Below are positions 6,964-55,345 of a DNA stretch of 64,000 nt, in pieces (position 1 is the stretch's first letter; every line of letters begins with the position of its first letter). A program made the translations under genes and the position numbers. This DNA is from Planctomycetota bacterium (lineage in GTDB: Bacteria > Planctomycetota > B15-G4 > SIAN01): the NCBI GenBank assembly GCA_028289345.1, contig JANQQL010000018.1, forward strand, positions 86,030 through 150,029, in the 5' to 3' direction. Under the pieces are notes generated by a model, which was not told the origin of the DNA, did not search any database, and saw nothing but the letters and a program-made list of their open reading frames with translations.

Positions 6964-8487
6964 CTACTCGAAAGTGAGGGTCACCACCTCCGAAATTCCG
7001 GCCTTGCCACTGAACTGCTTGGCGATGACTTGGAAATCCATGGAGAGTCCGGAAAACGCCGGCGGCCCGAAGTAATCGAAGGTCCACTGTCCCTTCGCGT
7101 TGAACGGCGCGACAAACATGGTGATGTTGGCCGGGACTGCGTCGATCGCCACCAGACGCAGGATGTGCCAACCGCCCGGCTCCCCCCCCACGGTCCCCAT
7201 GGTCAGGGGCTGAAAGGTCTGCACCGTGGTCGGTGCGATCCGAAACGCCAGCTCGGGAATGCGAAACAGGTGGACGGCACCTAAGTTGCCGGCTTCCTGC
7301 CAGCTTCCCGTCACGACCTCGAGGCCCACCAGGGCAACCGAATGCCCGAGTTCCTCGCCCCCCGCGGCAGCGGTGGCCTCCAGAATGTGCTGCTCCACCC
7401 ACTCTTCGCCATATTGGCGAAAGACATAGGCTGCTCCCGAAAACGCGGGGGTGTTGGCCAGGGGGGCGCCGACGACCAGATTGCCGCGCTGCAAAGCGAC
7501 CGCGTGACCGAACTCTTCTCCTCCGACCGCGTCCGAGGCCTGCAATTTCTGCTCTGCTAGGTACTGATTGCCGTCCCACAGGTAGGTGAAGACTGCCCCG
7601 GAGTTGCTTGACGGCTCGCTGCGACCGACCGCTCCCCCAATCAAAGCGCAGTCGTCGAGCCCCACCGAGTGACCGAATCGATCATTGGAAGCCGAGTCAC
7701 TGGGCACCACCTTTTGCACCAATCCCCAGGTGATCCCGTCCCATTCGTAGACGTAGACCGCCCCCCCATCGAAGTTTCCGTCGTCGTCATTGGGAGAGCC
7801 GATGGCGATTCGATTGCCGTGAACGTCCACTGACGCGCCGAACCGATCGGCGGCGGCGGCGTCCGCGGGGGTGATCTTCTGCTCTTCTCTCCAGACGATC
7901 CCGTCGTAGCGATACACGTACACGGCGCCGGCCTGGGTGCCGTTCTCGGAATCCCACTTGGCGCCAATCACCGCGACATCGCCATCGACATCCAGGGCGC
8001 TGCCATACAACGCATTCGCCTGTCCGTCAGAGGCTGTCAGCTTGAACCCCTGGACCCAGTCAAAGCCGTTCCAGCGGAAGGTGTAGGCGGAACCGGCGTT
8101 GATCCCGTTGTCGTCGTCCCACAGCGCTCCGACCAATACGACGTCGCCACTCATCGCCACGGCAAGACCAAAGTTGTCGCCGGTCTGGCCATCGCTCGGG
8201 ATCAATTTCTTGACCAGAGACCACATGCCTGCGTCGCGTTGATAGAGGTACGCGGCGCCCGAAGCCGGACCGGAACTCGCGTCACCATTGGCACCGAGCA
8301 CCAGGAACTCCTGGTTCTCGTCCATGGCGACGGCGGCGCCGACTTGGTCTCCCGCCACTGCTCCGACCGGCACGATGCGGTCAGTTTCCGTCAGGATGTT
8401 CGTCGCCCCGGCGGTCGATGCAGCCAGGCTCACACTCAAGAAGACGAGTGATTGGACGACGACGGGGGGTGGACCCGCCCGTTCCAT
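6964..8487 (-). CDS. Secreted FG-GAP-like repeat protein (beta-propeller)
   Basis: Signal peptide after MERAG. At least five repeats of D(N/R)FG-x-(A/S)V-x-(G/A), e.g. DNFGLAVAMSGD, DRFGASVDVHGN, DRFGHSVGLDD, EEFGHAVALQRGN, EELGHSVALVG. Confidence 0.65.
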   Translation of the reverse strand: MERAGPPPVVVQSLVFLSVSLAASTAGATNILTETDRIVPVGAVAGDQVGAAVAMDENQEFLVLGANGDASSGPASGAAYLYQRDAGMWSLVKKLIPSDGQTGDNFGLAVAMSGDVVLVGALWDDDNGINAGSAYTFRWNGFDWVQGFKLTASDGQANALYGSALDVDGDVAVIGAKWDSENGTQAGAVYVYRYDGIVWREEQKITPADAAAADRFGASVDVHGNRIAIGSPNDDDGNFDGGAVYVYEWDGITWGLVQKVVPSDSASNDRFGHSVGLDDCALIGGAVGRSEPSSNSGAVFTYLWDGNQYLAEQKLQASDAVGGEEFGHAVALQRGNLVVGAPLANTPAFSGAAYVFRQYGEEWVEQHILEATAAAGGEELGHSVALVGLEVVTGSWQEAGNLGAVHLFRIPELAFRIAPTTVQTFQPLTMGTVGGEPGGWHILRLVAIDAVPANITMFVAPFNAKGQWTFDYFGPPAFSGLSMDFQVIAKQFSGKAGISEVVTLTFE

Positions 8488-8689
8488 GTTTGCACTTTCC
8501 GGGTGCCCGAGGCACTCTCCACTTCTTGTTCCGGTTCCCTCTACCCCACCCACGATAGGGGCCCGGACCGGTTCTCTCTAGCCCGGATCGTTCATGGAGG
8601 CCTGGTGCGGCCGCCGGGGAGATTCCTCCGCGTCCCGGAGAAAGGGGAGGGACCGCCCCCTTCCCTCTCGACGAAAGGTCGGCGAGTGC

Positions 8690-10426
8690 TCATTCCGACG
8701 CCCCCTCGGCTTCGGTGAGGGCATCCGCGAGGCGTTGTTCCAGCAGCCGCATTCGCTCCTCCGCCGCCGCTCTGGATTGGCGCAGTTCTTGGATTTCGCG
8801 CTGCTGTCGTTCGAAGAGTGCGTGCAAGCCCTGGATCGCGGCCATGGTCACCCCGCTGGTGTCCAGCGCCGAGACGTGACGTTCGTCCGCTCCCAGCCCG
8901 TAGGCCGAGTGAAAGTCCTGGGCCATCGGCCCCATGTGCCGCGGCCGGGATCCCTCATTGGCCCCCTTCTTGTAGGACCAGGTCATCACCGGAAGATCCA
9001 GCAACTGGGCCAACACTTGCGCCGGGTTCACCGGTTCCAGGTCCTGCTTGGCATGGGCATCGGACAATTGACTGAGGGTTCCGCTGATGGTGACGTTGCC
9101 ACCACTCGCCACCCGCAACTCGGTGTCTCCCCCCGCAAAATTCTTCAACACGAAGTCGGTCCCGGAAGTTCCCATCTGCCAAGCGTTGATGAGGTTCGCC
9201 GTCTTGTCCTGAAACAACACGCGAACCGGGCCATGATTCCTCATCTCCAGAAGCTGACGGGTCGCCGGGCTTGGCTCGAACTCCTCGAGGTGGAGTTTCA
9301 GGCTTCCCTGATCGCCAAGCAGGAACGTCTGGCCAATGACCGCGGCCGTTCCTGCGACGTGCAACTTCGCTTCCGGGAGAACTGTGCCGATCCCCACGTT
9401 TCCATTCCCACGCACCACCAAGCTGTTGCTCGGGGCCCCGGACTGGACCCGGAAAGGAGTGCTTCCCGCGGTCGCATCGCGCAAGAAGAAGTTGATCTGT
9501 CCGCCGGCCAGATCCCATGCCTGGGGAGGAAGACCGAGGGAGGCGTCTTGCTCGAGCCGGCACAGGGGTGTGTTGCCACGAACCAGATGAAGGTCGGCGA
9601 TGGGTGCCGAAGTTCCCAGGCCGAGCTGCCCCTGCCCATTCACGCGGAGGGCTCCCTCGGGCGCTCCGGCGTCGACTCGCAACGGAGAATTCCCCGTGCC
9701 GAGATCGACCACGGAGAAGTGATCCGCTCCCCCATTCACCATGTCGTTGATCCGCAGTTCCCAATCGTTCCCCGGAAACAGATTGGTGCTGGTGTCGTGG
9801 AAGCCAATGCGCAGGTTGTTTTCCTTGAGACGCAGCGTGTCGGCATCGAACACCTCGTCGACGACGCAGTCCAGCCCAATGCAGGAACTCCCGAACACGA
9901 TGTGATCATCGAGCACCGACACATCCTCGGACGGGCCATCGTCTTCCGAATCTGCAGCGTGGCCGGGAAGAACCAGCTGCCCTTGGCGAATCCAAAAGTG
10001 CCCGGATTGCTTGGCAACAGGCGTCGCCGACCACGAGTCGGTCAGAGCCCGGGCGGCCCGTTCATTCCCGGTTCGCAACAAGCTCTCGAGACGCCGTTGC
10101 TGCTTCGAAGTCGGCGCCACGACTCGAGTGAGTTCGAACGAGTACATTCCCTCGGAACGCGGCTGGCCCGAGTCGTCCAGTATTCGAAACAGTGGCCAGA
10201 CCCCCGGCGCAAAGCGACGTTGAACATGCTGCCCGCTCGGTCCCACCACGGTGAGGTCCAAAGCGCAGGTGGAGTCTTCGGGCCGCCACGCCACTTGACC
10301 GTGAGAACCCCCATCCATCGTCGCGACCTTGGGTCGCGACGGCTCGGCGGCGGCGCAAGGAGTGCCAGAAAGCAACAACACCGCAAGACAAGACAATGAC
10401 ACGGATCGACAATGACCAATCAGCAT
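8690..10426 (-). CDS. Tail-fibre-like secreted protein with C-terminal peptidase S74 intramolecular chaperone (CIMCD) domain
   Basis: Signal peptide MLIGHCRSVSLSCLAVLLLSGTPCAA. Repeated beta-helix-like segments (GNSPLRVDAGAPEGALRVNG / GSTPFRVQSGAPSNSLVVRG / GDTELRVASGGNVTISG). The C-terminus LSDAHAKQDLEPV...WSYKK...HMGPMAQDF, followed by a coiled coil, matches the S74 autoproteolytic chaperone domain of phage tail spikes. Confidence 0.7.
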   Translation of the reverse strand: MLIGHCRSVSLSCLAVLLLSGTPCAAAEPSRPKVATMDGGSHGQVAWRPEDSTCALDLTVVGPSGQHVQRRFAPGVWPLFRILDDSGQPRSEGMYSFELTRVVAPTSKQQRRLESLLRTGNERAARALTDSWSATPVAKQSGHFWIRQGQLVLPGHAADSEDDGPSEDVSVLDDHIVFGSSCIGLDCVVDEVFDADTLRLKENNLRIGFHDTSTNLFPGNDWELRINDMVNGGADHFSVVDLGTGNSPLRVDAGAPEGALRVNGQGQLGLGTSAPIADLHLVRGNTPLCRLEQDASLGLPPQAWDLAGGQINFFLRDATAGSTPFRVQSGAPSNSLVVRGNGNVGIGTVLPEAKLHVAGTAAVIGQTFLLGDQGSLKLHLEEFEPSPATRQLLEMRNHGPVRVLFQDKTANLINAWQMGTSGTDFVLKNFAGGDTELRVASGGNVTISGTLSQLSDAHAKQDLEPVNPAQVLAQLLDLPVMTWSYKKGANEGSRPRHMGPMAQDFHSAYGLGADERHVSALDTSGVTMAAIQGLHALFERQQREIQELRQSRAAAEERMRLLEQRLADALTEAEGASE

Positions 10427-10698
10427 GATCGACTTCCCAGATGAGTGAAACAGGGAGAACGGCACTGCGCAACGGGCAGTTGGTCGTCACCCCAGGGGCA
10501 CGGACAAACGGCATCTTCCTTAGCTTGAATTCCATGGAACGGTGGGGATGCAGAGCCCAAAGCAGCTTCCTCTGCGTCGATGGGAAACGAGTTCCCGATC
10601 TTGTTGCTCGGAATCCAACCGTACCGTCCAGGGAACGCGTTTCGGGGGTTGCTGTGAGGGACTGTTATGCTCCTTGACGACAGCCTCGTTTCCTTCCA

Positions 10699-13600
10699 TT
10701 GCTTGTTCCGTCCTCTTGCACTGGGTGCATTCTCATGGTGACCCTGCCCGCTTCATTCGGACTCGCGGCAATGCTGCTCTTGGTTCCACTCGACGAGTCG
10801 GCATCTGCGACCGATTGGGAAGCGGCGGGACTGTGTGCGCCGGCGAACTGCTGGACGATGAGAGACGGTTGCCCCGCTCGATCCGGATACAGCCTGACTC
10901 CGGGCCTCCGGGGGCCGTTGCAGACTTCATGGAGTTTCCAGACTCGCGGAGAGATCGAAGAAGAACCACGGATTTGGGACGAGTTCGTGTTGGTCAGCGA
11001 AAAGGTCAAGGAGGATCGAAGAGTCCTGCACGTCGTGGACCTGCTGCACGGCAATGTCGTGGCCAAGGAACCGGTTTCCTCCGAGGTGGCCCTTGGCCCG
11101 TCAGTCTGGAATCGCGTCGTCGTCCTCCGCACGGGACCTCGGTCGCTGTCGGCCTTTCGCATCTACGCGACCAATCTCAAGCTGCTGTACCGATGGGAGC
11201 TTCCCGGAGATTGCTCGGAACCGGTGCTGCTTGGCAGAAGGTTCTTCCTGCGCGTCGGAAGCGAGATTCATGGGTACCGTCTTGGTCGAGCGGAACCTCT
11301 CTGGACCACCCCCGGCAACTTTCGTGGCGAAGTCTCCGTTTTGGGAGATCATTTGTTCGCGGTGGACTACCGCGGGCGCATGGGGGAGCTGGTTTGGCTG
11401 GATCGCGAGACCGGCGAGGAGTCCCGGAGCTTTTTCGTCGGGCAGCACGGTGGTCAGCAACCGTCGCGCTCATCGTCGACCTGTGTTTCGCTCACTCCGT
11501 GGAATTCGATCGTGCGGCACAGCCTTCCCATCGAAACGAACCTGGACCGGGATGACGCGAACTGCGTGTTCCTCCAAGGAAGCCCGGTCCCCCCACCGAA
11601 AGAGGACCCGGCCAGCGGCGTCTTGTCATTGGAACGCGGCCCGGTGCTGTGGGAACAGGGATTCCTCTCCCTGATGCAGAGTGAGCAGGGACCAGCGATG
11701 TTGATCCTTGACGAGGTCGGAGACGGACGGGTCCTCGCGTCGAAAACGTGGCACTCGGATTTCCTGAATCAGCCGGTTCCGTACACGCGAACCAAGGACG
11801 TCTTGTACGCAGGAATGCGAGGAATCGACAGCGAGACGTTCGAGATTCTTTGGAACGAGCCCGAAACTCCGCCACACTTTCGGGTAGTTCCGGGGAGGGA
11901 AACGGCATTGGTCGTGGACCGACCGAACCAGTTGACCGCTTGGCGACCGGCGGCCTCCGTCAAGAGACCGCGGTTTCATGAACTGCCGGAGGCTTCGAGC
12001 GAAGGAGCTGGCTCCACGAACTGGAAAGGCACCTTGGTGTTTCGGGACGGTTCGGTCCACCAAGGCGAGTTCACCGTCTCGCCATGGAAACCCAAGTTGC
12101 GAGAAGTGGTCATCCGCGCTCGCTCCAAGAAATCCTCCGCCTCGCGCTGGACCTTGGAAGAATTGCTGGTGGCGATCGATGACGACCATCGCTTGCTCTA
12201 TGCCGGCCCCGAGGACGACTTTTTGTGGGGCCTGGAACTGCTGGTCGAGTCACGAACCGCGGATGCCTACGCCGAGCTCGCTGCCGAGGCCGCGGGTGCG
12301 AACGACCCGGAACTCTTGGAGCGATTGCTGGGAGAAGCAACCCGACGCGGCACCCAGGAGTGGCTGACCGTCTCGCGAGCAGAAACCAAGCTCTCGAAGA
12401 TGCACGAGTCGATCGACAAGGGCCGCCCTCCCAAACGCAAGGACCGGGTGGCCGAGTCTGTCGAGAACAAAGAGTCGGAGGTCACACGCCTCCCCATCGA
12501 TTTCTTGTGGAAAGAGATCGAAGCGCTTCCCGAGAGCGCGCCCGACACCGTCCTTCTCGACTTGCTCCGAACTCTGGTGGAGCGCGAACCCGATCATGAG
12601 GGGGCCGCGACGCGAGTGCGGGAACAACTTCCCGATGACACCGAGCCGCCCCAGGGCTTCGATGCTCTCGAATGGATCGATTTCCTGGAAGCCATTCGCC
12701 ACACTCAGATCACCATGCTGCATCCTGATCTCCAGGCGTCTGGATGGGAAACCGAGCAAGCATTGCTTCAGCAAGCGCAGCAGGAATGGCGCACGGATTT
12801 GGTCGGGATTCGAAGCCCGCGACTGCTTGTCATCACTCCTTTGCACAATCCCGGACGCATCGCTCGTTGTCTGGCGATGGGAGAGCTGGTGTGTGAGTCG
12901 CTGGAAGAGCTGTTCATTTCTTCATCCGAGGAGCTGCGCGGGACCGACCGGCCGATGACGCTCTACTTGTACGAGTCCCAGCAAGAGTATCTGGGGAACG
13001 CGGGAGCATCGGCGGCCTTCCTCGAGTGGTCTTCTGGCCACTATTCCCCGACGGAAGGCCTCGAGAAGATCTTCCTCCCCACCGACAAGGATGCCTTCGA
13101 GCGCGTCATGGACACCTACGCTCACGAACTCACCCACCACTGGATCTTGGAACGTTGTCCGACCGTGACGAACCCCGATCCTCGAGCGGCATTCCATCAA
13201 CCGGGCTTCTGGATCGTGGAGGGACTCGCTTCCTTGTTGGGCTCTTTTGACTTCCGCCCTCGCGAGAAGAGCTACCGGTTCGATGCGTTGCCGGAATGCC
13301 TGGACTTGCTGGCCAACGCCCCAAGCGGCGATCTGATTGCTTGGAACGACTTGTTTCAGATGTCCCAGAAAGACTTTGCGATGCTCCCGAGCGGCGAGGA
13401 GAACAGTCTTCGAATTCCCTTGGCTCGCTCCCTTGGCCTTGGGCGGCAGATCGATCGCAAATCCCTTTTCTACGTCCAGGCAGAGGCGGCGTGCCAGTAT
13501 CTGTTCCACCACAGTCGCGGGACGAGAAACCAGCTACTCCAGTACATCGGGGACTACTACGGCGCCCGGACCGAGCGGACCACGATCTCGGGCGCATTTG

Positions 13601-13710
13601 GCACAAGCGGCAGCAAACTCGGCACGCAGGTCGAAGACTTCGCTCGGACCGCGCGCGACCAATTTCGGATCAGCGGAGCTGCCTTCGAATCTGCTCCCGA
13701 TAGTCGCTGA
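10699..13710 (+). CDS. Large secreted protein: N-terminal PQQ-like beta-propeller region plus C-terminal DUF1570-like HExxH metallopeptidase-like domain
   Basis: N-terminal signal-like hydrophobic segment. The C-terminal region has YAHELTHHW (HExxH), as in planctomycete DUF1570-type proteins. 1003-aa ORF with normal composition. Confidence 0.6.
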   Translation: MLVPSSCTGCILMVTLPASFGLAAMLLLVPLDESASATDWEAAGLCAPANCWTMRDGCPARSGYSLTPGLRGPLQTSWSFQTRGEIEEEPRIWDEFVLVSEKVKEDRRVLHVVDLLHGNVVAKEPVSSEVALGPSVWNRVVVLRTGPRSLSAFRIYATNLKLLYRWELPGDCSEPVLLGRRFFLRVGSEIHGYRLGRAEPLWTTPGNFRGEVSVLGDHLFAVDYRGRMGELVWLDRETGEESRSFFVGQHGGQQPSRSSSTCVSLTPWNSIVRHSLPIETNLDRDDANCVFLQGSPVPPPKEDPASGVLSLERGPVLWEQGFLSLMQSEQGPAMLILDEVGDGRVLASKTWHSDFLNQPVPYTRTKDVLYAGMRGIDSETFEILWNEPETPPHFRVVPGRETALVVDRPNQLTAWRPAASVKRPRFHELPEASSEGAGSTNWKGTLVFRDGSVHQGEFTVSPWKPKLREVVIRARSKKSSASRWTLEELLVAIDDDHRLLYAGPEDDFLWGLELLVESRTADAYAELAAEAAGANDPELLERLLGEATRRGTQEWLTVSRAETKLSKMHESIDKGRPPKRKDRVAESVENKESEVTRLPIDFLWKEIEALPESAPDTVLLDLLRTLVEREPDHEGAATRVREQLPDDTEPPQGFDALEWIDFLEAIRHTQITMLHPDLQASGWETEQALLQQAQQEWRTDLVGIRSPRLLVITPLHNPGRIARCLAMGELVCESLEELFISSSEELRGTDRPMTLYLYESQQEYLGNAGASAAFLEWSSGHYSPTEGLEKIFLPTDKDAFERVMDTYAHELTHHWILERCPTVTNPDPRAAFHQPGFWIVEGLASLLGSFDFRPREKSYRFDALPECLDLLANAPSGDLIAWNDLFQMSQKDFAMLPSGEENSLRIPLARSLGLGRQIDRKSLFYVQAEAACQYLFHHSRGTRNQLLQYIGDYYGARTERTTISGAFGTSGSKLGTQVEDFARTARDQFRISGAAFESAPDSR

Positions 13711-26141: not shown

Positions 26142-27263
26142 CTACTGTCCCGCGTACATCCAAATCGCCGATGGGCGGCCCAAGTACTTCTCTCCGCCGG
26201 CATCGAAATGAACCGGCTGCATCACGTATGGGAGGAATGACAGCTCGGGAAAATCGGGAACGTTGATCGGCGGGACGGACATCGTTCCCGTCGCCGGGAT
26301 GACCCCGACTCGGGAATTCAAGAAGGAGGAAAGATCAATCGCGAAGACCCCTCGGAACTTCCGAAACGGTCCGAATCCAGCTTCCACGCTCCGCGGCAAC
26401 AGGACCACGTCACCGGGAGTCCCCTGAAACTCGAGTGCGAGGGTGTTGGTCCCGTAGACCACGGGACCGTCGACGACCAGCGACCGAGCCTCTCCTTCGA
26501 AGAACTCGACCACTCCGTTTGGGTCGTGGATCGAAACAGAACCCGTCGATCCCGAGACGATGGCGCAATCCAGAACCTGACCAGAGTTTCCTTCCGGACC
26601 AACCCACAGTCCGAACCCCGAGAGAAACGAACGTCCTCCCTCGAAGCGACAACCGGACGCAAACAGGAAACTGCTGTCATTCACCACGACCCCATGACCT
26701 CCGAATCCCCCGGAAGGATGAGCGACCGATCCCCCCTCGAATTCACAGTCATAGGCGGCGACCCGCGAGTTTTGGACCGAGAGCCCTGTCTCGCCCGTTG
26801 TGGTGCCAGTCCCAGAGCACCCCACGAGAACCACTTGATCCGAGTTCAAAACGGAGAACGAACCAAAGTCGAAAGTGCAGTCCTCGATCCACACCAAGCC
26901 TTCACAATCCCCGATGAAGATGCCGGTGGACTGCTGAAACTCGAGGCCGCGAATGATCAACTGTTCGTCTGCAGGAATCCCTGAGACGTACACTTCCACC
27001 GGCTTCACCACCGGAGTGGTGCCGCGCTTGGCAAAGATCCCCACTCCCTTCGTGATCGTGCTCAACCAGAAGTCGTCAATGGTGTCGTAGATCCCGTGCT
27101 TGACCAACACCATGTCACCGGCTTCTGCGGTCACAATGGCCTCATTGAGTGTGGGTAGGTCTCCGGGTCCCCCATTGTCATCGACCACAAGGATGTTGCC
27201 TTGCCCCGACAATGGCGCGGCAAAGAGGCTCATCAGAATCGGAACGAGTCGAGCGTTGACCAT
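26142..27263 (-). CDS. Secreted right-handed parallel beta-helix repeat protein
   Basis: Signal peptide MVNARLVPILMSLFAAPLSGQG. Repeated G-x-G/CxFEGG segments consistent with a pectin-lyase-like fold. Confidence 0.55.
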   Translation of the reverse strand: MVNARLVPILMSLFAAPLSGQGNILVVDDNGGPGDLPTLNEAIVTAEAGDMVLVKHGIYDTIDDFWLSTITKGVGIFAKRGTTPVVKPVEVYVSGIPADEQLIIRGLEFQQSTGIFIGDCEGLVWIEDCTFDFGSFSVLNSDQVVLVGCSGTGTTTGETGLSVQNSRVAAYDCEFEGGSVAHPSGGFGGHGVVVNDSSFLFASGCRFEGGRSFLSGFGLWVGPEGNSGQVLDCAIVSGSTGSVSIHDPNGVVEFFEGEARSLVVDGPVVYGTNTLALEFQGTPGDVVLLPRSVEAGFGPFRKFRGVFAIDLSSFLNSRVGVIPATGTMSVPPINVPDFPELSFLPYVMQPVHFDAGGEKYLGRPSAIWMYAGQ

Positions 27264-29450: not shown

Positions 29451-29930
29451 TCGGCAGGGAACCGCGCCGGCACAAGAGCCGTCCCATTCCGCGAACGAAG
29501 ATGTCCCGGACCACAGGTCAATCAGCGCCGCGAGCACGACAGAGTGATGGGCTGGATACTCACACCCTCGGGCAACGAGCCCCCCCGCCGCATCTTGGGA
29601 CCGTTGCACCGACTTCAACTTCGTGCTGCCATGGGAAGAACCCATAAGCTGGCTTTGGCGACCCTGAGTCATCCGTTCTCCGCCCGGACTCAATGCGAGA
29701 GTTGAACCCTACCCAGGCGCGAACCGTGCGGGTTAAGCACACACACTCTTTGGTTCAATGGTGTGGTCAGACAGTCAGGCTTGTCCTTCGCGGAGCGCGC
29801 GTTTCCACCTCCATCGGAGCCGGTAGCCTTTGGGGGCATTCATCCGTGGTCCCCAGCGCGAACTCTGGAAAGATCACTTCACGGGTAACCCGCACTTCAC
29901 ACCCAGGGCAACGTCTGAGAGACGAGAGCA

Positions 29931-30866
29931 TTGGAATCATCCCTCCTTGTATTGGTCCATGTGCTCTCGAGTGGGCTCTTTGGCATTTTTCAGCATCAGG
30001 TCGGCCGGAATCGGTGTGACCGCCTGTTGTTCATGCAGGTGGTCTCCCTAGTAACGTGCCTCGTCAACAGCACTCTCTTTGTTCGGTGGGCTGGAACGAA
30101 CGGAGCGCGGTGGTCGTTTCCACTGGAAAACCTGCGGTTAACCTTCGTGATGTTGCTGCTCGGAGGTCTTTTCTTTGCCCTGTTTTTCTCGCGCCTCTTA
30201 GTGAAAGAGTTTCTTCCCTCGTTCGTTTTTGCGCCTCTCTACCGACTGCAAATGCCAATCGTAGTCCTTGTCGCCATCTTCTACTTGCATGAGGAGGCAT
30301 CAGTCATTCATACGATTGGACTCTTCTGCGCATTCGTCCCTCTCATCCTTGTTGCCACTCCTCCTCGCGTTCAGACAAATCAGCGTCGATTCAACCATCG
30401 ATCAAAGCCACCTCGGTACGGACCCAGGTGGATTCGGGGTGCCGCACTCATGATGGTGGTCGTTGCGCTCGCGGCTTGCCTCCAACTCTCCACAAAAGTG
30501 CTGACCGCTCACGATCTATTTGCAGTGCCTCCTCTGACGTATGCAATGCTGCTGAATATCGGAACATTGTTCGTTGGCCTGATTCTTCTCATTTCGAGAA
30601 CAATTCGAAGCAGAAGCATCCGCGAACCTCGTCTGGCGATCGTCCTTGGCCTAGCAGCAGGCCTTGTCAACGCCGTGACTTTGCTCAGTTTGGCAGTGTA
30701 TCTCGTCGACGGGCGAGCAAGTGTGATCTACCCTGCCGGCGCGATGTCCCTATTCATCCCAATGATCGCCTTCGGCTATCTGGGCACCGAGCCACGGCCG
30801 TCCCCGGTGCAAATTCTGTCCATTACTCTCGCCACGGCGGCAACCCTACTACTGATGGGCTCTTGA
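29931..30866 (+). CDS. EamA/DMT-like polytopic membrane protein (within low-GC island)
   Basis: About 10 TM segments with internal duplication. The C-terminal LGTEPRPSPVQILSITLATAATLLLMG resembles the EamA repeat end. TTG start at 29931, with an alternative ATG at 30033. Lower GC than its surroundings. Confidence 0.45.
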   Translation: MESSLLVLVHVLSSGLFGIFQHQVGRNRCDRLLFMQVVSLVTCLVNSTLFVRWAGTNGARWSFPLENLRLTFVMLLLGGLFFALFFSRLLVKEFLPSFVFAPLYRLQMPIVVLVAIFYLHEEASVIHTIGLFCAFVPLILVATPPRVQTNQRRFNHRSKPPRYGPRWIRGAALMMVVVALAACLQLSTKVLTAHDLFAVPPLTYAMLLNIGTLFVGLILLISRTIRSRSIREPRLAIVLGLAAGLVNAVTLLSLAVYLVDGRASVIYPAGAMSLFIPMIAFGYLGTEPRPSPVQILSITLATAATLLLMGS

Positions 30867-30881
30867 TGAAGGAGTGCCTGA

Positions 30882-33380
30882 ATGATCCAGCGATGGTCGG
30901 CTGCGATGTACTTATTTGCCCATCTGGGTACGCAAACGCCAGAGGCTGGGCCACTGGTCACGATCAGCGTACCCGATGACCAATCTGATTGGAGTGAGCT
31001 GAACAGATACCTCAATGAAGAACTTCGCACACTGAATGCGTCGATCCGCATCAAGTTCACAAAGCGTGACATCGACTCGGCGCTCCATGAATTGGCGAAT
31101 CCGAGTGACAACAACGTCGGTGCCTTACTCCCACCGTTTCGCTATGTAGTCGCCGACCTCGTCGTGAATGACCTCGAGCTCGTCGCACGCATCCGACGTG
31201 CAGGACGTTTCGTCGTACCCCAGAGTGACTGGGACAACAACAAGCGTCCCGACTCTGACCCAGAGTATGCCGAGTACAACGCACCAGAGCCTCTTGATCA
31301 CTACCGGAGCCTGGTGGTGATGCACCGCAACTCAGGAGTGTGGCCACCTCCCCTCCCGCGTGACCTTTTCCGTGCACAGTCGATTCAAGAACGAAACCTC
31401 GACAAGGTAACCATCTCTTTTTCCGGTTACCGATCGACTTCTGAGTTCGTTTACCCCTTCGCTCATATCACGCGAAAGGGCTGGCGCGATCGCATCGTAG
31501 AAAGTCCGCGACGTACGGCCGGCCGACGTGAGGACGCCTGGAAGTTAAAGATGGTGTCCGTGGATAGCGCTCACTACGGAGACAAACGGGAAATCGCGGA
31601 ACGCAAGCAGCTCACGGAGAGTCTCGCATCGGAAACCGGCGACTTTCAACTTTTCTGTACAAGCGACCATAAGTTCTACGCCTCGTATCCGAACGAAAAA
31701 GCTCGCCATGCGAGATTTGAGGAGGTGTACCGCTCCCCTCCGATTCCCTTTGATGCACTGGTTGTTCGAAAATCCGCCCTCGGGCTCGTGGAACTTCAGA
31801 AGCTCAGGCGAGCTTTCCTCTCGACCCGCGACATGGCCCCGAAAGAGCGAGCAGAGTGTTTTCCATGGAGTCCTACTGAAGATGACAACCAGTCATTTCT
31901 GCGCTCTCCGGATGTCCACGATTTCGTCGAAGCCGATGATGCGGAGTACGACAAGATTCGCCAGGAAGCCGCGGTAGCATTTGGTGGAGCAATCGTGCGA
32001 GTTGCGGTCGCGAAGCAAGTGCACCGCAGCGAATCCCGAGACATGATGTTCTTTCGCCAGTGGATGAAGGACGTTCTGAAAGCACAACCGGATTCACCGG
32101 TGTTCCTTGACTTCGTGTACTACGACAGTTTCGACGAGATCGCGACAGATCTCAAAGACGGCAGAGTGCACCTCGGAGAGCTCAACGTAACTCGAGCCGC
32201 CACTCTCCTGGGACGTGAGGAGGGTGTACTGCTAGGACGCTCCGTCTTTGGCGGCGAGGACTTCTATCGATTCGTAATCGTGACGGCTGAGCCGAACAAG
32301 AAGACGGTCGATAGCATTCAAACGGCCGGCCCTTTCGCGATCACCTCGCGGGCATCTGGCTCCGGCTTCGTGTATCCCGTCGAATACCTTCAATCCAGAG
32401 GCCGAAGCCCGAAAGAACGAATTGAAGTCGGAAATGCTGACAACGTCCTCGACGCAGTTCTACGCTATGCCAACGAAAGCCAAGATCCAAAGTCTGCACT
32501 TTACGGCTTCATGGCCGACTTCGAATTCGAGAAAATCAGGAGACGCTGGCCCGAAAAAGCCATCGAAAAGATCGGAACCATTGAAGTTCATGAAGAGCAA
32601 GCGAGAATTCCCAACGCAATGCTCATTGCCTCAAAGGGCGCGTTCCCGATGGTCGGCACTTGGTTTCAGCGCTTGTCAACCGGGCACGAAAAGGATGAGA
32701 GCTCTGATGGGCGAAACGCAACTGCCGTTGAACAACCGCTGTCCACGAAGACCACTGACATCCTACGCGATGCAATCATCGCGAACCTGTCGTCGGAGGC
32801 ATTCGGAGGCTACCGACGGGCGACGCAAGATGACGTGGATGAGCTCAGCGAGCTCTACTGGAAAACTGCGAAGCGACCAGTCGCCATTATCGTCGGTGTC
32901 CTAGCCGTCGGAATCATCGCCTCCACATTGTGCGTCATCTGGGTCTATCGACGGGGCGTCTCATCTTCGAGCGAAGATCAGCGGGTGGTTTCAATTCAGA
33001 GCATTTGGGACGTATTGAAAGGCGGTGTCCCAGACGATCGAATGGCCCGAGATCTCATTTGCATCGGTTTGCAGATTTTTGGGCAACTGAAAGACGACGA
33101 CGGGAAGCTCAAGAAAGTCTTCGGTTCTCCTGCAGCGCTTCGGAAAGAGCTGGGCGACGCCCTGCTAGCCGTACTGGTCCGCCATCAAAGTGATCGCACC
33201 TTGTCTGACGAGACATACTACTACACTCATCTAGACAGACTGGACAGGGTGGTCAGGAAAGCCACGTCAGAGATCGATAACTACCTCAGTCGTGTTGATC
33301 GACCCGAGACTAGCGAATCGGCCGACTGGCTCTCAAAATGGGTGCGGACGCTGGATACCGTCAAGAAGCTAATTGACTGA
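30882..33380 (+). CDS. Large hypothetical protein: two tandem PhnD/SsuA-like (type-2 periplasmic-binding-fold) domains, single TM helix, unknown ~170-aa C-terminal domain
   Basis: AAGGAG 8 nt upstream of ATG 30882, and coupled to the upstream gene. Motifs TISFSGYRSTSEFVYPF and FAITSRASGSGFVYPVEYLQSRG resemble the PhnD substrate-binding fold. TM helix VAIIVGVLAVGIIASTLCVIWVY. No kinase, GGDEF or other known output domain. GC ~52-55%. Confidence 0.6.
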   Translation: MIQRWSAAMYLFAHLGTQTPEAGPLVTISVPDDQSDWSELNRYLNEELRTLNASIRIKFTKRDIDSALHELANPSDNNVGALLPPFRYVVADLVVNDLELVARIRRAGRFVVPQSDWDNNKRPDSDPEYAEYNAPEPLDHYRSLVVMHRNSGVWPPPLPRDLFRAQSIQERNLDKVTISFSGYRSTSEFVYPFAHITRKGWRDRIVESPRRTAGRREDAWKLKMVSVDSAHYGDKREIAERKQLTESLASETGDFQLFCTSDHKFYASYPNEKARHARFEEVYRSPPIPFDALVVRKSALGLVELQKLRRAFLSTRDMAPKERAECFPWSPTEDDNQSFLRSPDVHDFVEADDAEYDKIRQEAAVAFGGAIVRVAVAKQVHRSESRDMMFFRQWMKDVLKAQPDSPVFLDFVYYDSFDEIATDLKDGRVHLGELNVTRAATLLGREEGVLLGRSVFGGEDFYRFVIVTAEPNKKTVDSIQTAGPFAITSRASGSGFVYPVEYLQSRGRSPKERIEVGNADNVLDAVLRYANESQDPKSALYGFMADFEFEKIRRRWPEKAIEKIGTIEVHEEQARIPNAMLIASKGAFPMVGTWFQRLSTGHEKDESSDGRNATAVEQPLSTKTTDILRDAIIANLSSEAFGGYRRATQDDVDELSELYWKTAKRPVAIIVGVLAVGIIASTLCVIWVYRRGVSSSSEDQRVVSIQSIWDVLKGGVPDDRMARDLICIGLQIFGQLKDDDGKLKKVFGSPAALRKELGDALLAVLVRHQSDRTLSDETYYYTHLDRLDRVVRKATSEIDNYLSRVDRPETSESADWLSKWVRTLDTVKKLID

Positions 33381-33416
33381 CGACCTGCGTGATGGTCCCT
33401 CAAACATGCGAGGACC

Positions 33417-35398: not shown

Positions 35399-37003
35399 TC
35401 AGAACAAAGCCGTCTCACTCTCTTCTGTGGTCGGCTCGTCCTCGAACTCCATCACCACACTGTCGGCGGTACTCGCCTCCTCTCCCGAAGGAGAGAACGT
35501 GTGGCCAGCATCGCCACGAACTCGTCGGACCAGCGAGTCCAGATCAAAGATCATCGTGGTCGATTCGAAAGAGCCATCGTCACCCGCAGTCACGTACTCT
35601 TTGATGTCGCACTTGAGTTCGCTGTTCGTGGGCGGCCGGAGCATCGATGGCACGTTCTGCTTCTGGTGAGCGTCGATGTGGATCAAACCGTCCACTCGGT
35701 CCACCATGAAGCCGAATACGTCTTTCCCCGAATCCACGATCAAGACCTGGGTCGACGCTTCATTCTCAAAGGGCTCGAGACCGTAGGTCCTCCTCAAATC
35801 GACGACCGAAACCAGTTTGCCGCGAAGGTTGAACACCCCACGAATGTGCTCCGGAGTTCCTGGCGTGTGGGTCAAGCTCTCGGGGAATTCGATGATTTCG
35901 CGGACGTCCAGTACCGGCAAGGCGGCCCGGTGCCCGAGTGAGAAGGTGATGTACGAGAAGCGTTCGCCGCTCCCGGTGGAACGAGTCTCTACTTCGACGA
36001 GGGACTCACCTTGATACAGGGCCTGATGGCTCTGCGTGACACCGACAATGCCCTCATCTTCGAGGATGCGTCCATGATCCAGGAGCAACACCTCCGAGCC
36101 ATCTGACGGAACAATGCACCCTCGAACCAGCGACTCCTTTTCCTGGTTGTAGTCCGGGATCGGCAACATCTGTTGATCGGTGTAGGCCAAGATACTGGTG
36201 ACCTCGTCGACCACAAGCCCAAATCGATCCGATCCGTGGTGCATGACGATGACTTTCTTCGAGTCAAGCCCCTCGTCTTCGTCGGAGCGATCGCCGTCAA
36301 GCATCTTCGAAAGTCGCAGCAGCGGCATCACGACGCCGCGCAAGGTCGTCATTCCCAAACACAGTTCGTCCGCAAGACTCGATTCTTGGTAGTCCGGCAT
36401 CGGAATGATCTCGCTGACCGCTGTCATTTCCAACGCAAGAAGATGATCCTCTACCTGAAAAGTGATGCATTGTTTGCGGATGCCTCCGGGAGAGCCCCCT
36501 TTGTCCGAAACTGGGTTCTTGGGATCCACAATGCGCGGGAGATTCTCGATGCGGGCCAATCGCCGGGCGTGGATGACGTCAACCAGCCGATTGCCGTCAT
36601 CCAACCGCAAAACTCCGGCAACCACCCGACGCCCGGGAGTCACAGGCTCCGAGTCGTCGGCCTCGTAGGAGAATGATTTCAGCGCGGAGTCGTCCACTCG
36701 CACGATTTCCTTCGTGCTGTCAAAGACCAGTCCGTAGCGGACCCCTTGGTCCTCCAGAATGGCAACTTTCCGATTCTCTTCCTGGTCCGCGTGGATCCCC
36801 AAGAGCTCTCCGACGTCGAGAATCGGGATGATCATTCCACGCAAGTTGAAGACACCGAGCATGAACGGCGGGGAAAGGGGAACAGGCACCACATCTTCTG
36901 GGGCGTTGACCACCTCCAAGATCTCGTTGACATCGATGCCGATCTCGGTCGTTCCCAGACCGAATGTTCCAAAGAGCCTGTTTCCGAGAGCCTTCTCTGT
37001 CAT
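35399..37003 (-). CDS. Chemotaxis protein with three tandem CheW-like domains
   Basis: Three repeats of the CheW pattern (...VVNAPEDVVPVPLSPPFMLGVFNLRGMIIPILD..., ...PMPDYQESSLADELCLGMTTLRGVVMPLL..., ...PESLTHTPGTPEHIRGVFNLRGKLVSVVDLR...). 534 aa. Confidence 0.8.
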   Translation of the reverse strand: MTEKALGNRLFGTFGLGTTEIGIDVNEILEVVNAPEDVVPVPLSPPFMLGVFNLRGMIIPILDVGELLGIHADQEENRKVAILEDQGVRYGLVFDSTKEIVRVDDSALKSFSYEADDSEPVTPGRRVVAGVLRLDDGNRLVDVIHARRLARIENLPRIVDPKNPVSDKGGSPGGIRKQCITFQVEDHLLALEMTAVSEIIPMPDYQESSLADELCLGMTTLRGVVMPLLRLSKMLDGDRSDEDEGLDSKKVIVMHHGSDRFGLVVDEVTSILAYTDQQMLPIPDYNQEKESLVRGCIVPSDGSEVLLLDHGRILEDEGIVGVTQSHQALYQGESLVEVETRSTGSGERFSYITFSLGHRAALPVLDVREIIEFPESLTHTPGTPEHIRGVFNLRGKLVSVVDLRRTYGLEPFENEASTQVLIVDSGKDVFGFMVDRVDGLIHIDAHQKQNVPSMLRPPTNSELKCDIKEYVTAGDDGSFESTTMIFDLDSLVRRVRGDAGHTFSPSGEEASTADSVVMEFEDEPTTEESETALF

Positions 37004-37006
37004 GAC

Positions 37007-37480
37007 CTACTCTCTGACGATCTTCTGGACTTCGAACTCACCGGTGTGACCGTGGATGAGCATCTGGCGCCCGAAGTGATCTCCGCATTCCTGGGAGATG
37101 ATCCTGATGCCCAGTTTCCGCAACGCGGCCCGGGCGGCACGGACATTGCCCTCGCCCACCTTGCCTCCGGGCGCCGCATCTCCGGGGCGCATCATCGACG
37201 CACCTCCGGCGACGACAGCTTTCACCGCGCGGAGTTCTGAGGGAGGGATTCCCATGCGACGGACCAACTCGGGGACGCCCCGGTCCACGTACTTGGCTTC
37301 GGCTTCCTCAGCCTTTTCACCGCTTGATTGGGGTAGCAGACAGTGCGCCAGTCCGTAGACCTCTCGGTCCTTCCAGAGGAGACCGATGCCCACGCAAGAG
37401 CCGAGGATGGTTTGCAGAGTCTCGCCCGCGGAGGCAACGCCGATGCGCCCCATGTGAACCCGCACGATCACCGAGTCCAT
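37007..37480 (-). CDS. cheD: Chemoreceptor glutamine deamidase CheD
   Basis: ILGSCVGIGL catalytic Cys region and overall CheD-like 157 aa. Confidence 0.8.
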   Translation of the reverse strand: MDSVIVRVHMGRIGVASAGETLQTILGSCVGIGLLWKDREVYGLAHCLLPQSSGEKAEEAEAKYVDRGVPELVRRMGIPPSELRAVKAVVAGGASMMRPGDAAPGGKVGEGNVRAARAALRKLGIRIISQECGDHFGRQMLIHGHTGEFEVQKIVRE

Positions 37481-38307
37481 CAGTCGGACCCTTTGCTGGT
37501 GTAAACGAGCGGTTGAATGAACTCCATTCGGGTATCCAAGCGAGCCAGAGATTCGGACTCGCCGATCACCAGGATGCCCCCCGGATTCAGGGATCGTCGC
37601 ACCGCTTCCACCACGGATTCTTGATCGGTCTGATCAAAGTAAATGAGAACGTTTCGAAGCAGCGCAATGTCGAACCGCTCTCGCGGAGTCCCCTGGCGAA
37701 GAAGATTGTGCTGGCGAAAGGTGATGTTCGCGCGAATCGTGGGAGCGACTTCCATCACTTCTTCATCCACCGGACGCAGGTAGTTGCGAAGGAATCCAGG
37801 ACTGGCTTTGCTCAACGCCTCGAGGGTTCGCCCCTGGTACCGGCCCGCCTCGGCCATCGCGAGGACCCCGGCAGAAATGTCCGTGGCGAGGACCGAAAAC
37901 TGAAACCCGCCGTGAGTTCGGCGGAACTCCTCGCCATACATGGCCAGGGTGTAGGCCTCTTCGCCCGTCGAGCATGCCGCGGACCAGATCCGCAATGGAC
38001 GGCTCGGCTCCCTCCTCCAAAACTCGGGAAGGAACTCACTCGCAAAGTAGCTCCAAACCCGCGGAGTCCGGTGAAAGTAGGTTTCATGGGTAGTGACCAA
38101 GTCGATGAACTGGTCCAACTCTCCTCGATCCGACTCGATCAGGTCCCAGTAGTCCGACCACTCAGAGATCTCTCTTGCCCGGAGTCGCCGCTCGAGACGT
38201 CCATGGATCAACGCCCGCTTCTTGGCGCTCATCCGGACCCCCGTGTGCTGGTACACCAACGCCAAGGCTTGCTTTAGGTCCGCATCGCACAACTCGAGAG
38301 TCGTCAT
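37480..38307 (-). CDS. cheR: Chemotaxis protein methyltransferase CheR
   Basis: IWSAACSTGEEAYTLA and VIGESE SAM-MTase motifs. Stop overlaps the cheD start (ATGA). Confidence 0.85.
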   Translation of the reverse strand: MTTLELCDADLKQALALVYQHTGVRMSAKKRALIHGRLERRLRAREISEWSDYWDLIESDRGELDQFIDLVTTHETYFHRTPRVWSYFASEFLPEFWRREPSRPLRIWSAACSTGEEAYTLAMYGEEFRRTHGGFQFSVLATDISAGVLAMAEAGRYQGRTLEALSKASPGFLRNYLRPVDEEVMEVAPTIRANITFRQHNLLRQGTPRERFDIALLRNVLIYFDQTDQESVVEAVRRSLNPGGILVIGESESLARLDTRMEFIQPLVYTSKGSD

Positions 38308-38316
38308 CGGACCGCC

Positions 38317-41013
38317 CTACTCGACCGTCGAACCGGCGAGGTTGGCTTTCAGTTCCTCGGCACCGTCCAGCAGGGCTTTCGTCGATCGAGCGATCGAGTC
38401 ACACGCGCCGGCGGATTTCTCCGTCTCTTCGGCGACATGTTGAATCGCCACGCTCACCTCGGTCGCCGCCGCCTTCTGCTCTTGCGTCGAAAGAGCGATT
38501 TCGGAGATCGCGTTGGTGGTGCGACTCACGCCATCGATGATCTTCTGGAACGCCGTTCCAGCCTCTCGGGAAACCTGGCTTCCGAGCGCCACTCGCTTGG
38601 TCGACTCCGCGATGAGCTTGGAGATCTCATTCGTTGCCTGGGCCGACCGCTCCGCCAGTTTCCGAACCTCGTCCGCGACCACAGAGAAACCGAGTCCATG
38701 CTCGCCGGCTCTCGCCGCCTCGATCGCAGCATTGAAGGCCAACAGATTCGTCTGGGAGGCGATCTCGTTGATCACTTTCACGATCTCTGCAATTTCCTCG
38801 GAGGACTTGTTGATCAACTCCATCGACTCGATCGACTGGTTGATCAACGACGTCCCCGACTCCCCTTCCGACTGGGTCGACTTGGCAAGGTTGTCCGCGT
38901 TCTGAGTATTCTGGGCGATCGCCTGGATCGCTTGGGTCAGCTCTTCGACCGACGCGCTCATTTCTTCCGTCGTGGCACCCAAGGCTTGAGCACCCTGGGC
39001 CACACTCGAGGACCGTGCCGCAATGTCCTTGGAGGAATTCGCGACATCGGTGGCGAGTCCGCTGACCGTGTCCGCCATTTCCTGCCGTTCTCGAACCTCG
39101 CGGGTGATGTCGGTGGCAAACTTGACCACTTTGCATGGGTTGCCATTGGCATCGAAGATCGGGTTGTAGTTGGCCTGAATCCAAACGGGGTCACCGTTCT
39201 TGGCCACTCTTCGGAAGCGGTCAGAGATGGATTCGCCGGAAGCCAATCGGTCCCAGAAGGCGCGGTACTCACTGGACCCCACAAAGTCCTTGTCGCAGAA
39301 CATCCGGTGGTGCTTGCCGACGATTTCGTCCAGAGAGTAACCCAGTGCGTTGAGGAAGTTTTCATTTGCAGTGACGACTTTGCCATCGAGTTCGAACTCG
39401 ATCACTGCTTGAGCGCGGCTGATTCCGTCCAGCTTCCCTTCGAAATCTGCGTTCTTCAGTTTGCGTTCCGTCACGTCGGACGCGAACTTCACCACCTTGA
39501 TCGGCCGCCCATTCATGTCGAAGATCGGATTGTACGTCGCCTGGATCCAGATCTCGCGTCCCCCCTTGCCGACACGCTTGTACTCCCCGGAATGGAACTC
39601 CCCTTTGGCGAGCGACTTCCAGAATTCCGCGTACTCCTCCGAGCGAGCTAGCTCGTCCTCGCAGAACATGCGGTGATGACGACCTCGGATTTCATCGAGG
39701 GTGTATCCCAGGGCCCGAAGGAAGTTGTCGTTCGCGTGAAGAATATTCCCTTCCAGGTCGAACTCGATCACGGCCTGGGCTCTTCCAATCGCACTCACCT
39801 TGCCCTCGAACTCAGCCCCTTGAAGTTTCGCCGCAGTGATGTCGGAAGCGAACTTCACCACCTTGTAAGGCCGACCGTTCATGTCTACGACAGGGTTGTA
39901 GGAGGCATGGATCCAGACGTCCCGGCCATCCTTGGCAACTCGGCGGTACTCACCGCTGTCGTATTCGCCGCGAGCCAGCTTGTCCCAGAATGCCGCATAG
40001 GCACTGGAGCTCGCGTACTCTTCGTCGCAGAAAATCCGGTGATGACGTCCCTGAACCTCCTCCAGCGAATAGCCCAGGGTTTGGAGGAAATTGTCGTTGG
40101 CGGAGAGAATGGTCCCGTCGAGATTGAACTCAATCACCGCCTGAGATCGGTTCAACGCAGACAGTTTGCTGTCGATCTCGGCGCTCGCCAGCTTTGCCTG
40201 GGTGATCTCCGACGCAAACTTGACGACCTTCACTGGGTTCCCACCGAGATCAAGAACGGGGTTGTAGGTCGCCTGGATCCAGACCTCGGTTCCGTCCTTG
40301 GCTCGGCGTGAGAACTCTCCGGAGGCGAACTCTCCCCGCGCCAGCGAGGCCCAGAACTCCTTGTACTCCGCGGACTTGGCATACTCGGGTTCGCAGAAGA
40401 TCCGATGGTGCTTCCCTCGGACCTCCTCCAGCCGGTAGCCAAGCGTGTCGAGAAAGTTCTCATTGGCGTCCAAGACGTGCCCGCTGAGATCAAACTCAAT
40501 CACCGCCTGGGATCGGCCGATGGCCTCGAGCTTTCCCTGACTCTCCGCTGCTTGGAGCTTCGCCTCGGTCACATCCGTCGCAAATTTGACGATCCGACAC
40601 GGCTTGCCGTGATCATCGAGGATCGGGTTGTAGGAAGCGTTGATCCAGATCTCTCGCCCCCCTTTCCCGAAGCGCATGTACTCCCCTTGGTCGAACTCCC
40701 CTCGGCCCAGCTTCTGCCAGAACTCACGGTACTCAGCGCTTGCCACGTAGCCCGGCTCACAGAAGATCCGGTGATGCTTGCCAACGATCTCTTCCAGTGA
40801 GTAGCCGACCGCGTTGAGGAAGTTGTTGTTCGCGTGGAGAATGGTCCCGTTGGGATCGAACTCGATGATTGCCTGGACTCGATTCAGAGCTTCCACGTAG
40901 GCCGAGTCGTCGGCAGCAGCGTTTTCCGGCCTCGCGCCATTCATTGCCTCGACGTAGCCGTTCGTGTCCAGTGATTTCGAAACTTCGTCCCGGTTGTTCT
41001 TCTTGGTTGCCAT
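38317..41013 (-). CDS. Cytoplasmic methyl-accepting chemotaxis protein with five tandem PAS domains
   Basis: Five ~123-aa repeats beginning (R)(S/A)QAVIEFD...HHR(I/M)FC..., followed by a C-terminal MCP signalling domain ([33 protein letters not shown]). No TM segments. Confidence 0.85.
39040..40884 (-). repeat. Five tandem ~369-bp coding repeats (PAS-domain units) inside the MCP gene
   Basis: Recurrent nucleotide blocks of the form cttcaccaccttg...ccgttcatgtc...gggttgta..gc.tggatccaga at a ~369-bp period, corresponding to the five PAS units. Confidence 0.6.
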
Positions 41014-54754: not shown

Positions 54755-55345
54755 GATACCGGGAGCCTCGAGGGGCTCTCGTTCAGCCCCTCCGGGATTT
54801 CCCTGCCCCCGGGAGAGCGCCATCGACTCCGCGGGGATTCCGCGTCATTCCAATCGGCGACCTCGCCAGGGTGATTGCGAGCCTCTTCCAGGCCGCCTCC
54901 ATTCGCTCGCCATTGATCACTCCATCGGCGCTTTCTCGCGCAAGCAATCCGGACTCGCGAAAGGCCGGACGGACCCGCCGTTCATATTGCTCCAGGATGG
55001 AGTTCAGCGACGCGCCCGATCGTGCTGATCCCGCCGGATCCGCCATCGCAACCGTTCAATCGTTGCCGACACAACACCAAGACTCCTTGGGTCGGTGCCC
55101 AGGCGAACAACAGGATTGGTTCAACCGACGAGACCAGGGAAACCGGGTGACAGTCCATGCGCAGGGCTCAGACCACCTGACCCAATGACGTGGCAAAAAC
55201 GAACGGAGCCGCCCCAGCCACCGGCCGTTCGGCCGATCGGATCGAGTGCTTGATTCCGGGGACGGCGCTTTCCCTTTTCTCCCACAATCTGATAGTCTTC
55301 GGTTATGAGACGCAGTCTCAATTTCATTCTAACCGAGGGGGTTCG

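Follow-up and report, generated by a model that had tools for sequence, protein, structure and literature searches.

The window analysed here, a 64,000-nucleotide stretch of contig JANQQL010000018.1 from a Planctomycetota bacterium, contains a minus-strand gene (8690..10426) that probably encodes a Sec-exported, non-phage trimeric fibre, folded and then self-cleaved by means of a C-terminal S74 domain and placed at the cell surface or outside the cell. In this it would share its design with the mosaic adhesive trimer (MAT) fibres of Bdellovibrio bacteriovorus and with the S74 fibres of phages. The gene belongs to no phage or prophage. Its product has domain homologies to these fibres, conserved catalytic residues and a signal peptide, and its family is very large, spans many phyla and occurs mostly in hosts that are not known predators. 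Trimerisation, self-cleavage, location and ligand are proposed by analogy with phage S74 proteins and with the Bdellovibrio fibre Bd3182, and an adhesin role of the window protein is suggested. The fibre design of Bdellovibrio is found here in the ordinary chromosomal setting of a planctomycete. The features of the gene and its product are as follows.

8690..10426, minus strand: whole gene, exported S74 fibre-like protein of 578 residues (open reading frame and identical database protein P0001)
10346..10426, minus strand: putative signal peptide MLIGHCRSVSLSCLAVLLLSGTPCAAA, residues 1-27 (sequence inspection; probable cleavage at an AAA/E site, after AAA and before EP)
10112..10339, minus strand: N-terminal immunoglobulin (Ig)-like beta-sandwich domain, residues 30-105
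9962..10111, minus strand: two helices (residues 107-133) and a beta-hairpin (residues 139-152), from the AlphaFold2 secondary structure
Residues ~156-169: acidic linker
9356..9919, minus strand: strongly conserved central module, residues 170-357 (entropy, profile match and checked translation)
9065..9355, minus strand: variable region, residues 358-454 (lowest conservation, many insertions and deletions)
8867..9064, minus strand: S74 intramolecular chaperone/autoprotease core, residues 455-520 (PF13884)
9062-9064 and 9047-9049, minus strand: codons of the catalytic residues Ser455 and Lys460, respectively
8693..8866, minus strand: C-terminal long helix, presumed trimeric coiled coil, residues 521-578 (AlphaFold2)

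Domain organisation of the fibre-like protein

The intact open reading frame (ORF) occupies 8690-10465 on the minus strand. Translation from the ATG at 10426 gives 578 residues, with the stop codon at 8690-8692, and the product is 100% identical to the 578-residue database protein P0001. Homologues align over 88-98% of its length. Where they are named in databases, they are called "tail fiber domain-containing protein", an annotation that stems solely from the S74 domain and can lead prophage predictors astray. Around the gene, GC content is unremarkable, and the GC content at third codon positions (GC3) is typical of the genes of the genome. A 601-residue ORF on the opposite strand (8594-10399, plus strand) was dismissed as an apparent artefact of high GC content; antisense ORFs over the homologous genes in other genomes cluster by themselves. 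Weak Pfam matches to IcmF_C (E 0.0024) and pAdhesive_15 (E 0.031) were also dismissed, as both fall under the cutoffs of their own models.

An S74 domain had been assigned in a first-pass annotation made from the sequence alone, and this assignment was confirmed by the Pfam search. PF13884 (Peptidase_S74) matches residues 455-508 with an E-value of 7.1e-9 and a score of 36.3 bits, which exceeds the curated cutoff (22), and the same model matches 27 of the 28 family members scanned; an NCBIfam search of the window protein matched nothing. The coordinates and sequence strings quoted in that annotation are all present, including SDAHAK at 9047-9064, which contains the dyad Ser455-x4-Lys460 (S455-DAHA-K460). 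Ser455 is conserved in 99 and Lys460 in 95 of the 119 aligned homologues, corresponding to about 80% for the dyad.

A structural counterpart of the domain was found in the intramolecular chaperone auto-processing (ICA) domain of myelin regulatory factor (MyRF; 7DC3), which is matched by the family profile (E 6e-6) and by Foldseek (probability ~1.00, template modelling score 0.59-0.61 on the target). The AlphaFold2 model of the window protein, computed as a single chain with 119 homologues as input, has a mean predicted local distance difference test (pLDDT) value of 83.8. In this model, a single helix is predicted with high confidence over residues 520-577 (pLDDT 94-97), in line with the C-terminal coiled coil proposed earlier; its counterpart in the alignment is the helix at the C-terminus of the MyRF ICA domain. 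The fold of this self-cleaving, trimerising domain is found in both proteins, with a capped beta-helix before it and a helix after it. MyRF differs in being a eukaryotic transcription factor whose released part moves to the nucleus, and the window protein has no C-terminal membrane helix. Such a transmembrane helix follows the chaperone coiled coil in 6 of the 119 homologues (P0002, P0003, P0009, P0027, P0038 and P0050), and cleavage in these six would therefore untether the fibre from the membrane, much as it releases the N-terminal part of MyRF.

At the opposite end, the first 27 residues contain a strong hydrophobic core (best 10-residue hydrophobicity window 2.63), and pLDDT is below 50 over residues 1-28. 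An equivalent signal-peptide-like N-terminus was observed in 116 of the 119 homologues, which agrees with the Sec signal peptide proposed initially; signal peptides were called heuristically, from a hydrophobic N-terminus, and not by a dedicated predictor. The Ig-like sandwich that follows has many look-alikes in the PDB. The helices and the hairpin behind it are moderately conserved, with the hairpin motif QSGxFxIxxGxxV in the family consensus.

Conservation is highest in the central module, where the mean column entropy is 1.0-1.5 bits, compared with 2.4-3.0 bits in the rest of the protein. The module contains the motifs DTLRLKENNLRI and NDW and a near-invariant cysteine pair (C182/C187), which is invariant in all 28 sequences of alignment A1 and fits an extracytoplasmic protein; Asp, Glu and Asn also occupy many near-invariant positions. 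Two of its repeat units end in capping loops of the form GxGTxxPxxxLH (residues ~266-281 and ~343-357). The module aligns at 27-31% identity with the fibre repeats of two marine phage proteins, namely a Roseobacter phage tail fibre and a hypothetical protein encoded beside the tail fibre gene of a Pelagibacter phage. The alignment with the Pelagibacter phage protein identifies the DTLRLKENN stretch as a specialised copy of the loop-bearing repeat, so that the central module is a row of three fibre repeat units. In the 28 family members scanned, the module is covered by no Pfam model. The beta-helix-like repeats described in the first-pass annotation are therefore present, but their placement at the N-terminus was mistaken: they lie centrally, and it is the Ig-like sandwich that follows the signal peptide. 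In the variable region, AlphaFold2 predicts a beta-sheet block at residues 402-447, just before the cleavage serine, and pLDDT falls below 50 at residues 362-377. After cleavage, this region would become the new C-terminal tip.

Relation to phage sequences

Pfam scans covered about 50 ORFs across the 64 kb, and 10 ORFs without a Pfam match were searched against PHROGs. No sheath, tube, baseplate, capsid or terminase genes were detected in the window by either search (0 of 10 ORFs with PHROGs), and no phage genes were found beside six homologues examined with Pfam labels. The absence of phage genes near the fibre gene, as originally claimed, thus applies to the whole window. With a significant S74 match and no prophage in the window, the outcome is on both counts the opposite of what the first-pass annotation had named as fatal to its proposal.

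The window looks like an ordinary chromosome of an uncultured member of the Planctomycetota, and the best named relatives of its PurD protein, at 62-64% identity, are from genomes labelled "Planctomycetes bacterium". It includes metabolic genes (FAD monooxygenase, NUDIX/metallo-beta-lactamase protein, ThuA, nucleoside symporter, sulfatase, PurD and serine dehydratase), regulatory and housekeeping genes (NusB, Fur and PadR), a hybrid histidine kinase gene, and envelope genes encoding a Wzy_C protein and a GT2 glycosyltransferase, ~11-14 kb from the fibre gene.

Searches of viral collections returned partial matches. In 50,697 phage records, no match covered more than 35% of the protein, and all were located in residues ~192-364 (27-31% identity) or in the S74 region. 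When 2.9 million viral contigs were scanned with two motifs, the best 80 matches all fell inside residues 336-569. Matches to PHROGs tail-fibre and virion-protein families were confined to residues ~330-559, and 248 models of predicted viral structures matched at E<=0.001, most of the named ones being S74 or tail fibre proteins. In the phage collections, the matches listed lie only at residues ~192-364 and ~440-555, which represent generic fibre repeats and the S74 domain. The first 190 residues matched nothing in the 50,697 phage records, nor did they appear among the matches listed from the 2.9 million viral contigs.

Comparison with known fibres

The family profile matches the solved structures of several MAT fibres, including the Bd2133 beta-helix (8OND, E 6e-13), Bd3182 (8OJN), Bd1334 (8OML) and Bd2439 (8OL4), and the Bd3182 beta-helix (8ONC) is the top PDB match of the window protein in Foldseek (probability ~1.0). 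MAT fibres are encoded on the chromosome of B. bacteriovorus, carry signal peptides, and are located on the surface of the predator, where they are used on prey (Caulton et al. 2024, PMC10769870). An S74 domain with the SDxxxK motif ends 13 of the 21 MAT fibres, and Bd3182 cleaves itself at the S74 serine S782, a reaction not seen in the S782A mutant (PMC10769870). Supplementary Table S3 of the same study also names short MAT-like proteins of other phyla, with a planctomycete among them (PMC10769870).

The window protein resembles MAT fibres in its chromosomal, non-prophage gene, its signal peptide, its stalk of beta-helical repeats with capping loops, and its C-terminal S74 domain with the S-x4-K arrangement. 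Several differences were also observed. The window protein has 578 residues, compared with ~1,000 typical of MATs, and its N-terminal Ig-like sandwich has many PDB look-alikes, whereas the ~130-residue N-terminal domain of MATs is by its description reported to have none. The conserved 188-residue module with its cysteine pair is not described for MATs, and neither the linkage to FG-GAP/ASPIC genes nor the tandem arrays presented below are reported for them. Furthermore, many hosts of the family, such as Acidovorax, Ruegeria, Shewanella and Dokdonella, are not known predators.

Phage S74 fibres and tailspikes, such as endosialidase K1F, the L-shaped fibre pb1 of T5 and marine podophage fibres like that of Roseobacter phage CRP-823, likewise combine an S74 domain with GxGTxxPxxxLH stalk repeats; the 587-residue CRP-823 fibre has both in common with the window protein. 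In contrast to the window protein, the phage fibres lack a signal peptide, are encoded inside modules of virion genes, and have a domain for attachment to the particle at their N-terminus.

The first-pass annotation described the protein as a domesticated, fibre-like surface protein. A non-phage surface fibre is supported, and the idea is strengthened by the near-universal signal peptides, the chromosomal, envelope-related neighbourhoods, the absence of the N-terminal 190 residues from phage collections, and the MAT fibres as best solved matches. The direction from phage to bacterium that is implied by "domesticated" is not established by these data.

To our knowledge, the use of phage-like fibres by bacteria for their own purposes was first described in 2024, in Bdellovibrio only. 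An exported bacterial fibre matured by an S74 domain is a general kind that has been known since that year, and we found no description of the subfamily of the window protein in the literature beyond the MAT paper. The features of the family that appear to be undescribed are the conserved module without a Pfam model, the wide spread in bacteria not known as predators, and the tandem arrays together with the FG-GAP/ASPIC link.

Family size and distribution

The central module was searched by itself, as a 196-residue stretch (residues 165-360), against 1.84 billion representatives of clusters formed at 50% identity. At least 1,384 clusters matched at E<=1e-30, and the number rose to 5,264 with the threshold at E<=1e-10. 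In species-representative genomes, at least 598 loci of the fibre family were identified, distributed over Acidobacteriota, Planctomycetota, Verrucomicrobiota, alpha-, beta- and gamma-proteobacteria, Bacteroidota, Omnitrophota and others. The cultured hosts include Acidovorax, Ruegeria, Jannaschia, Shewanella and Dokdonella. The following architectures were observed.

Architecture 1: ~530-620 residues, organised as the window protein
Architecture 2: ~400-450 residues, with the module directly after the signal peptide
Architecture 3: giant proteins of 1,700-7,600 residues with several copies of the module

Tandem arrays and FG-GAP propellers near the fibre genes

The neighbourhoods were compared in 79 loci, comprising 78 fetched loci and the window. 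Two or more fibre copies in tandem were present in 30 of the 79 loci, with a maximum of nine paralogues. Examples of such arrays are L015:7496-21547, L028:2223-14537, L024:1789-13339 and L012:5649-14407; the most variable region differs between arrays.

Genes for FG-GAP_3 proteins, often with a UnbV_ASPIC domain and often beside a gene for a TPR protein, were found within 10 kb of the fibre genes in 24 of the 78 loci; in 17 loci the distance was no more than 2 kb. Away from the fibre gene or array, their density drops sharply, as shown by the following counts.

0-1 kb from the array edge: 11 FG-GAP_3 genes in 135 kb of available sequence
1-2 kb from the array edge: 8 FG-GAP_3 genes in 127 kb of available sequence
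6-8 kb from the array edge: 1 FG-GAP_3 gene in 191 kb of available sequence
8-10 kb from the array edge: 0 FG-GAP_3 genes in 155 kb of available sequence

In total, 19 FG-GAP_3 genes lie within 2 kb of a fibre gene or array, compared with 1 at 6-10 kb; the loci are phylogenetically related, so these densities give no formal probability. The pairing recurs in different phyla (for example L164:2657-13405, L018:6288-12802 and L033:9920-16932). In an independent look-up, an FG-GAP_3/UnbV_ASPIC gene and a TPR gene came after three tandem fibre genes. Two Rhodobacterales loci encode the propeller as a fusion with a membrane domain of about ten helices.

In the window, the gene directly downstream of the fibre gene, on the same strand and after a gap of 136 bp, also encodes an FG-GAP protein.

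6964..8553, minus strand: exported FG-GAP_2 beta-propeller protein with seven repeats (PF14312, E 3.8e-85; likely start Met at 8487)

This neighbour belongs to a different FG-GAP subfamily from the FG-GAP_3/UnbV_ASPIC neighbours of the homologues. No close orthologue of it was found; its relatives are 35-42% identical, within a family of more than 6,000. The parallel with the other loci is suggestive only, and the neighbour is a possible partner of the window fibre. A second FG-GAP protein in the window (610 residues, 60978-62810, plus strand) is of the FG-GAP_3 type.

Other genes near the homologues include those for polysaccharide synthesis and export (glycosyltransferases, sulfotransferases and a Wzt-type exporter) and for giant repeat proteins with DUF7933, DUF11 or PKD domains, which are repeat adhesins. 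In a single case, the homologue P0011 (L161:1-7475) has as its divergently oriented neighbour a complete type II secretion/type IV pilus-type operon, which could serve as an export route for the folded trimer. An apparent tie between the window sulfatase and a cluster of neighbouring genes, produced by single-linkage clustering, was spurious, and the clustering was replaced by seeded phmmer searches.

A possible, though rather doubtful, interpretation of these neighbourhoods is that short S74 fibres and an exported or membrane-anchored FG-GAP/ASPIC propeller, often with a TPR protein, make up a phage-independent surface module, the counterpart of a fibre and its integrin-like receptor. Arrays of up to nine fibres might then equip non-predators with a recognition repertoire for cell-cell or cell-matrix contacts. 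The recurrent pairing offers a lead to the function of the fibres and of the equally obscure propeller family.

Proposed maturation and alternative explanations

By analogy with the characterised S74 proteins, the signal peptide (residues 1-27) would direct the chain across the inner membrane, where the S74 chaperone and the coiled coil (residues 455-578) may set three chains in register. Folding would then be nucleated and give an interdigitated, three-chain beta-helical stalk (residues ~170-454), with its repeats capped by loops. The Ser455/Lys460 dyad is expected to cut the chain at Ser455, releasing a chaperone fragment of ~14 kDa from a mature trimer of residues ~28-454, with ~45 kDa per chain. 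The mature fibre could be held at or near the cell surface by the stalk module, the Ig-like domain or both, and might bind a ligand there, most plausibly a surface glycan.

Several observations weigh against this reading. The highest conservation lies in the central stalk and not in an obvious anchor or tip, unlike in phage fibres, and comparison of tandem copies gave mixed results, with no consistently hypervariable tip. The structure model is that of a monomer, with a predicted template modelling score of 0.50. Passage of the folded trimer through the outer membrane is not accounted for, the pilus-type operon being located beside one homologue only. Moreover, neither a promoter nor a convincing terminator was detected for the gene: no sigma-70-like promoter was found, terminator-like sites are no commoner than in shuffled sequence, and the predicted folding of a GC-rich hairpin right behind the stop codon is no better than that of shuffled sequences (z 0.17).

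The resemblance to tail fibres also allows for an orphan receptor-binding fibre of a phage-derived particle whose genes lie in another part of the genome, for instance a prophage, a tailocin, an extracellular contractile injection system or a gene transfer agent. The PHROGs tail-fibre families do match the C-terminal part (residues ~330-559), phage tail fibres have repeat units and the S74 domain in common with the window protein, and S74 domains can, according to the literature, occur on the fibres of contractile injection systems. Furthermore, arrays of the short form are present in some Rhodobacterales, which are makers of gene transfer agents (L024, L028 and L033). Such particles, however, are assembled in the cytoplasm, yet the window protein and 116 of its 119 relatives have a Sec signal peptide. 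The particle genes (sheath, tube, baseplate, capsid, terminase) were found neither in the 64 kb nor beside the six homologues, and the N-terminal 190 residues, where a virion attachment domain would be expected, have no phage match and no viral contig match among those listed. This explanation is considered very unlikely. That the gene is instead a decaying, functionless remnant of a lost prophage is hardly credible. It is a lone phage-like gene among non-phage genes and no promoter-like site was detected, but the frame is intact and of full length with the catalytic dyad kept, GC3 is typical of the genome, the module is strongly conserved in at least 1,384 clusters from many phyla, and a signal peptide, absent from phage fibres, has been gained.

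A role as a secreted tailspike-like enzyme, or as a soluble lectin, acting on the exopolysaccharide of the cell itself or of its neighbours would replace the structural adhesin, and it too seems unlikely. The endosialidase tailspikes on which the S74 domain was originally described are glycan depolymerases, several homologues lie within clusters for polysaccharide synthesis and export, and the Wzy_C and GT2 genes of the window are ~11-14 kb away. The near-invariant Asp, Glu and Asn residues of the central module would also suit an active site or the binding of a metal or sugar. On the other hand, no glycosidase, lyase or esterase family was matched in the Pfam, NCBIfam and PDB searches, the stalk is short, and the central module aligns with the plain fibre repeats of Bd2133 and of the marine phage fibre-like proteins and not with a catalytic beta-helix. 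An exported structural fibre, as proposed above, is therefore preferred.

Other features of the window

Divergent from the fibre gene, a 1,003-residue protein is encoded at 10699-13710 (plus strand) with a zinc-protease-like HExxH motif (AHELTHH). It gave only sub-threshold Pfam hints (PQQ_2 and Peptidase_M61), had no PHROGs match, and has no relative in the 78 homologous loci. A dip in GC content at ~29900-33400 (~0.55 compared with ~0.61 elsewhere in the window) coincides with a 311-residue ORF without a family match and a gene for an 832-residue protein whose sole match is a phosphonate-binding periplasmic domain. Long ORFs overlap on both strands at 55190-58321 (plus), 55928-56812 (minus) and 56882-58129 (minus); Pfam matched neither the 1,043-residue plus-strand ORF nor the 415-residue minus-strand ORF in this region, and PHROGs gave nothing for the latter. 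A chemotaxis cluster at 35399-41013 (minus strand) encodes a 534-residue protein with three CheW domains, CheD, CheR and an 898-residue chemoreceptor (MCP) with five PAS domains. In addition, the window encodes a right-handed beta-helix protein of 373 residues (26142-27263, minus strand) and further exported repeat proteins of the Kelch and PQQ types.

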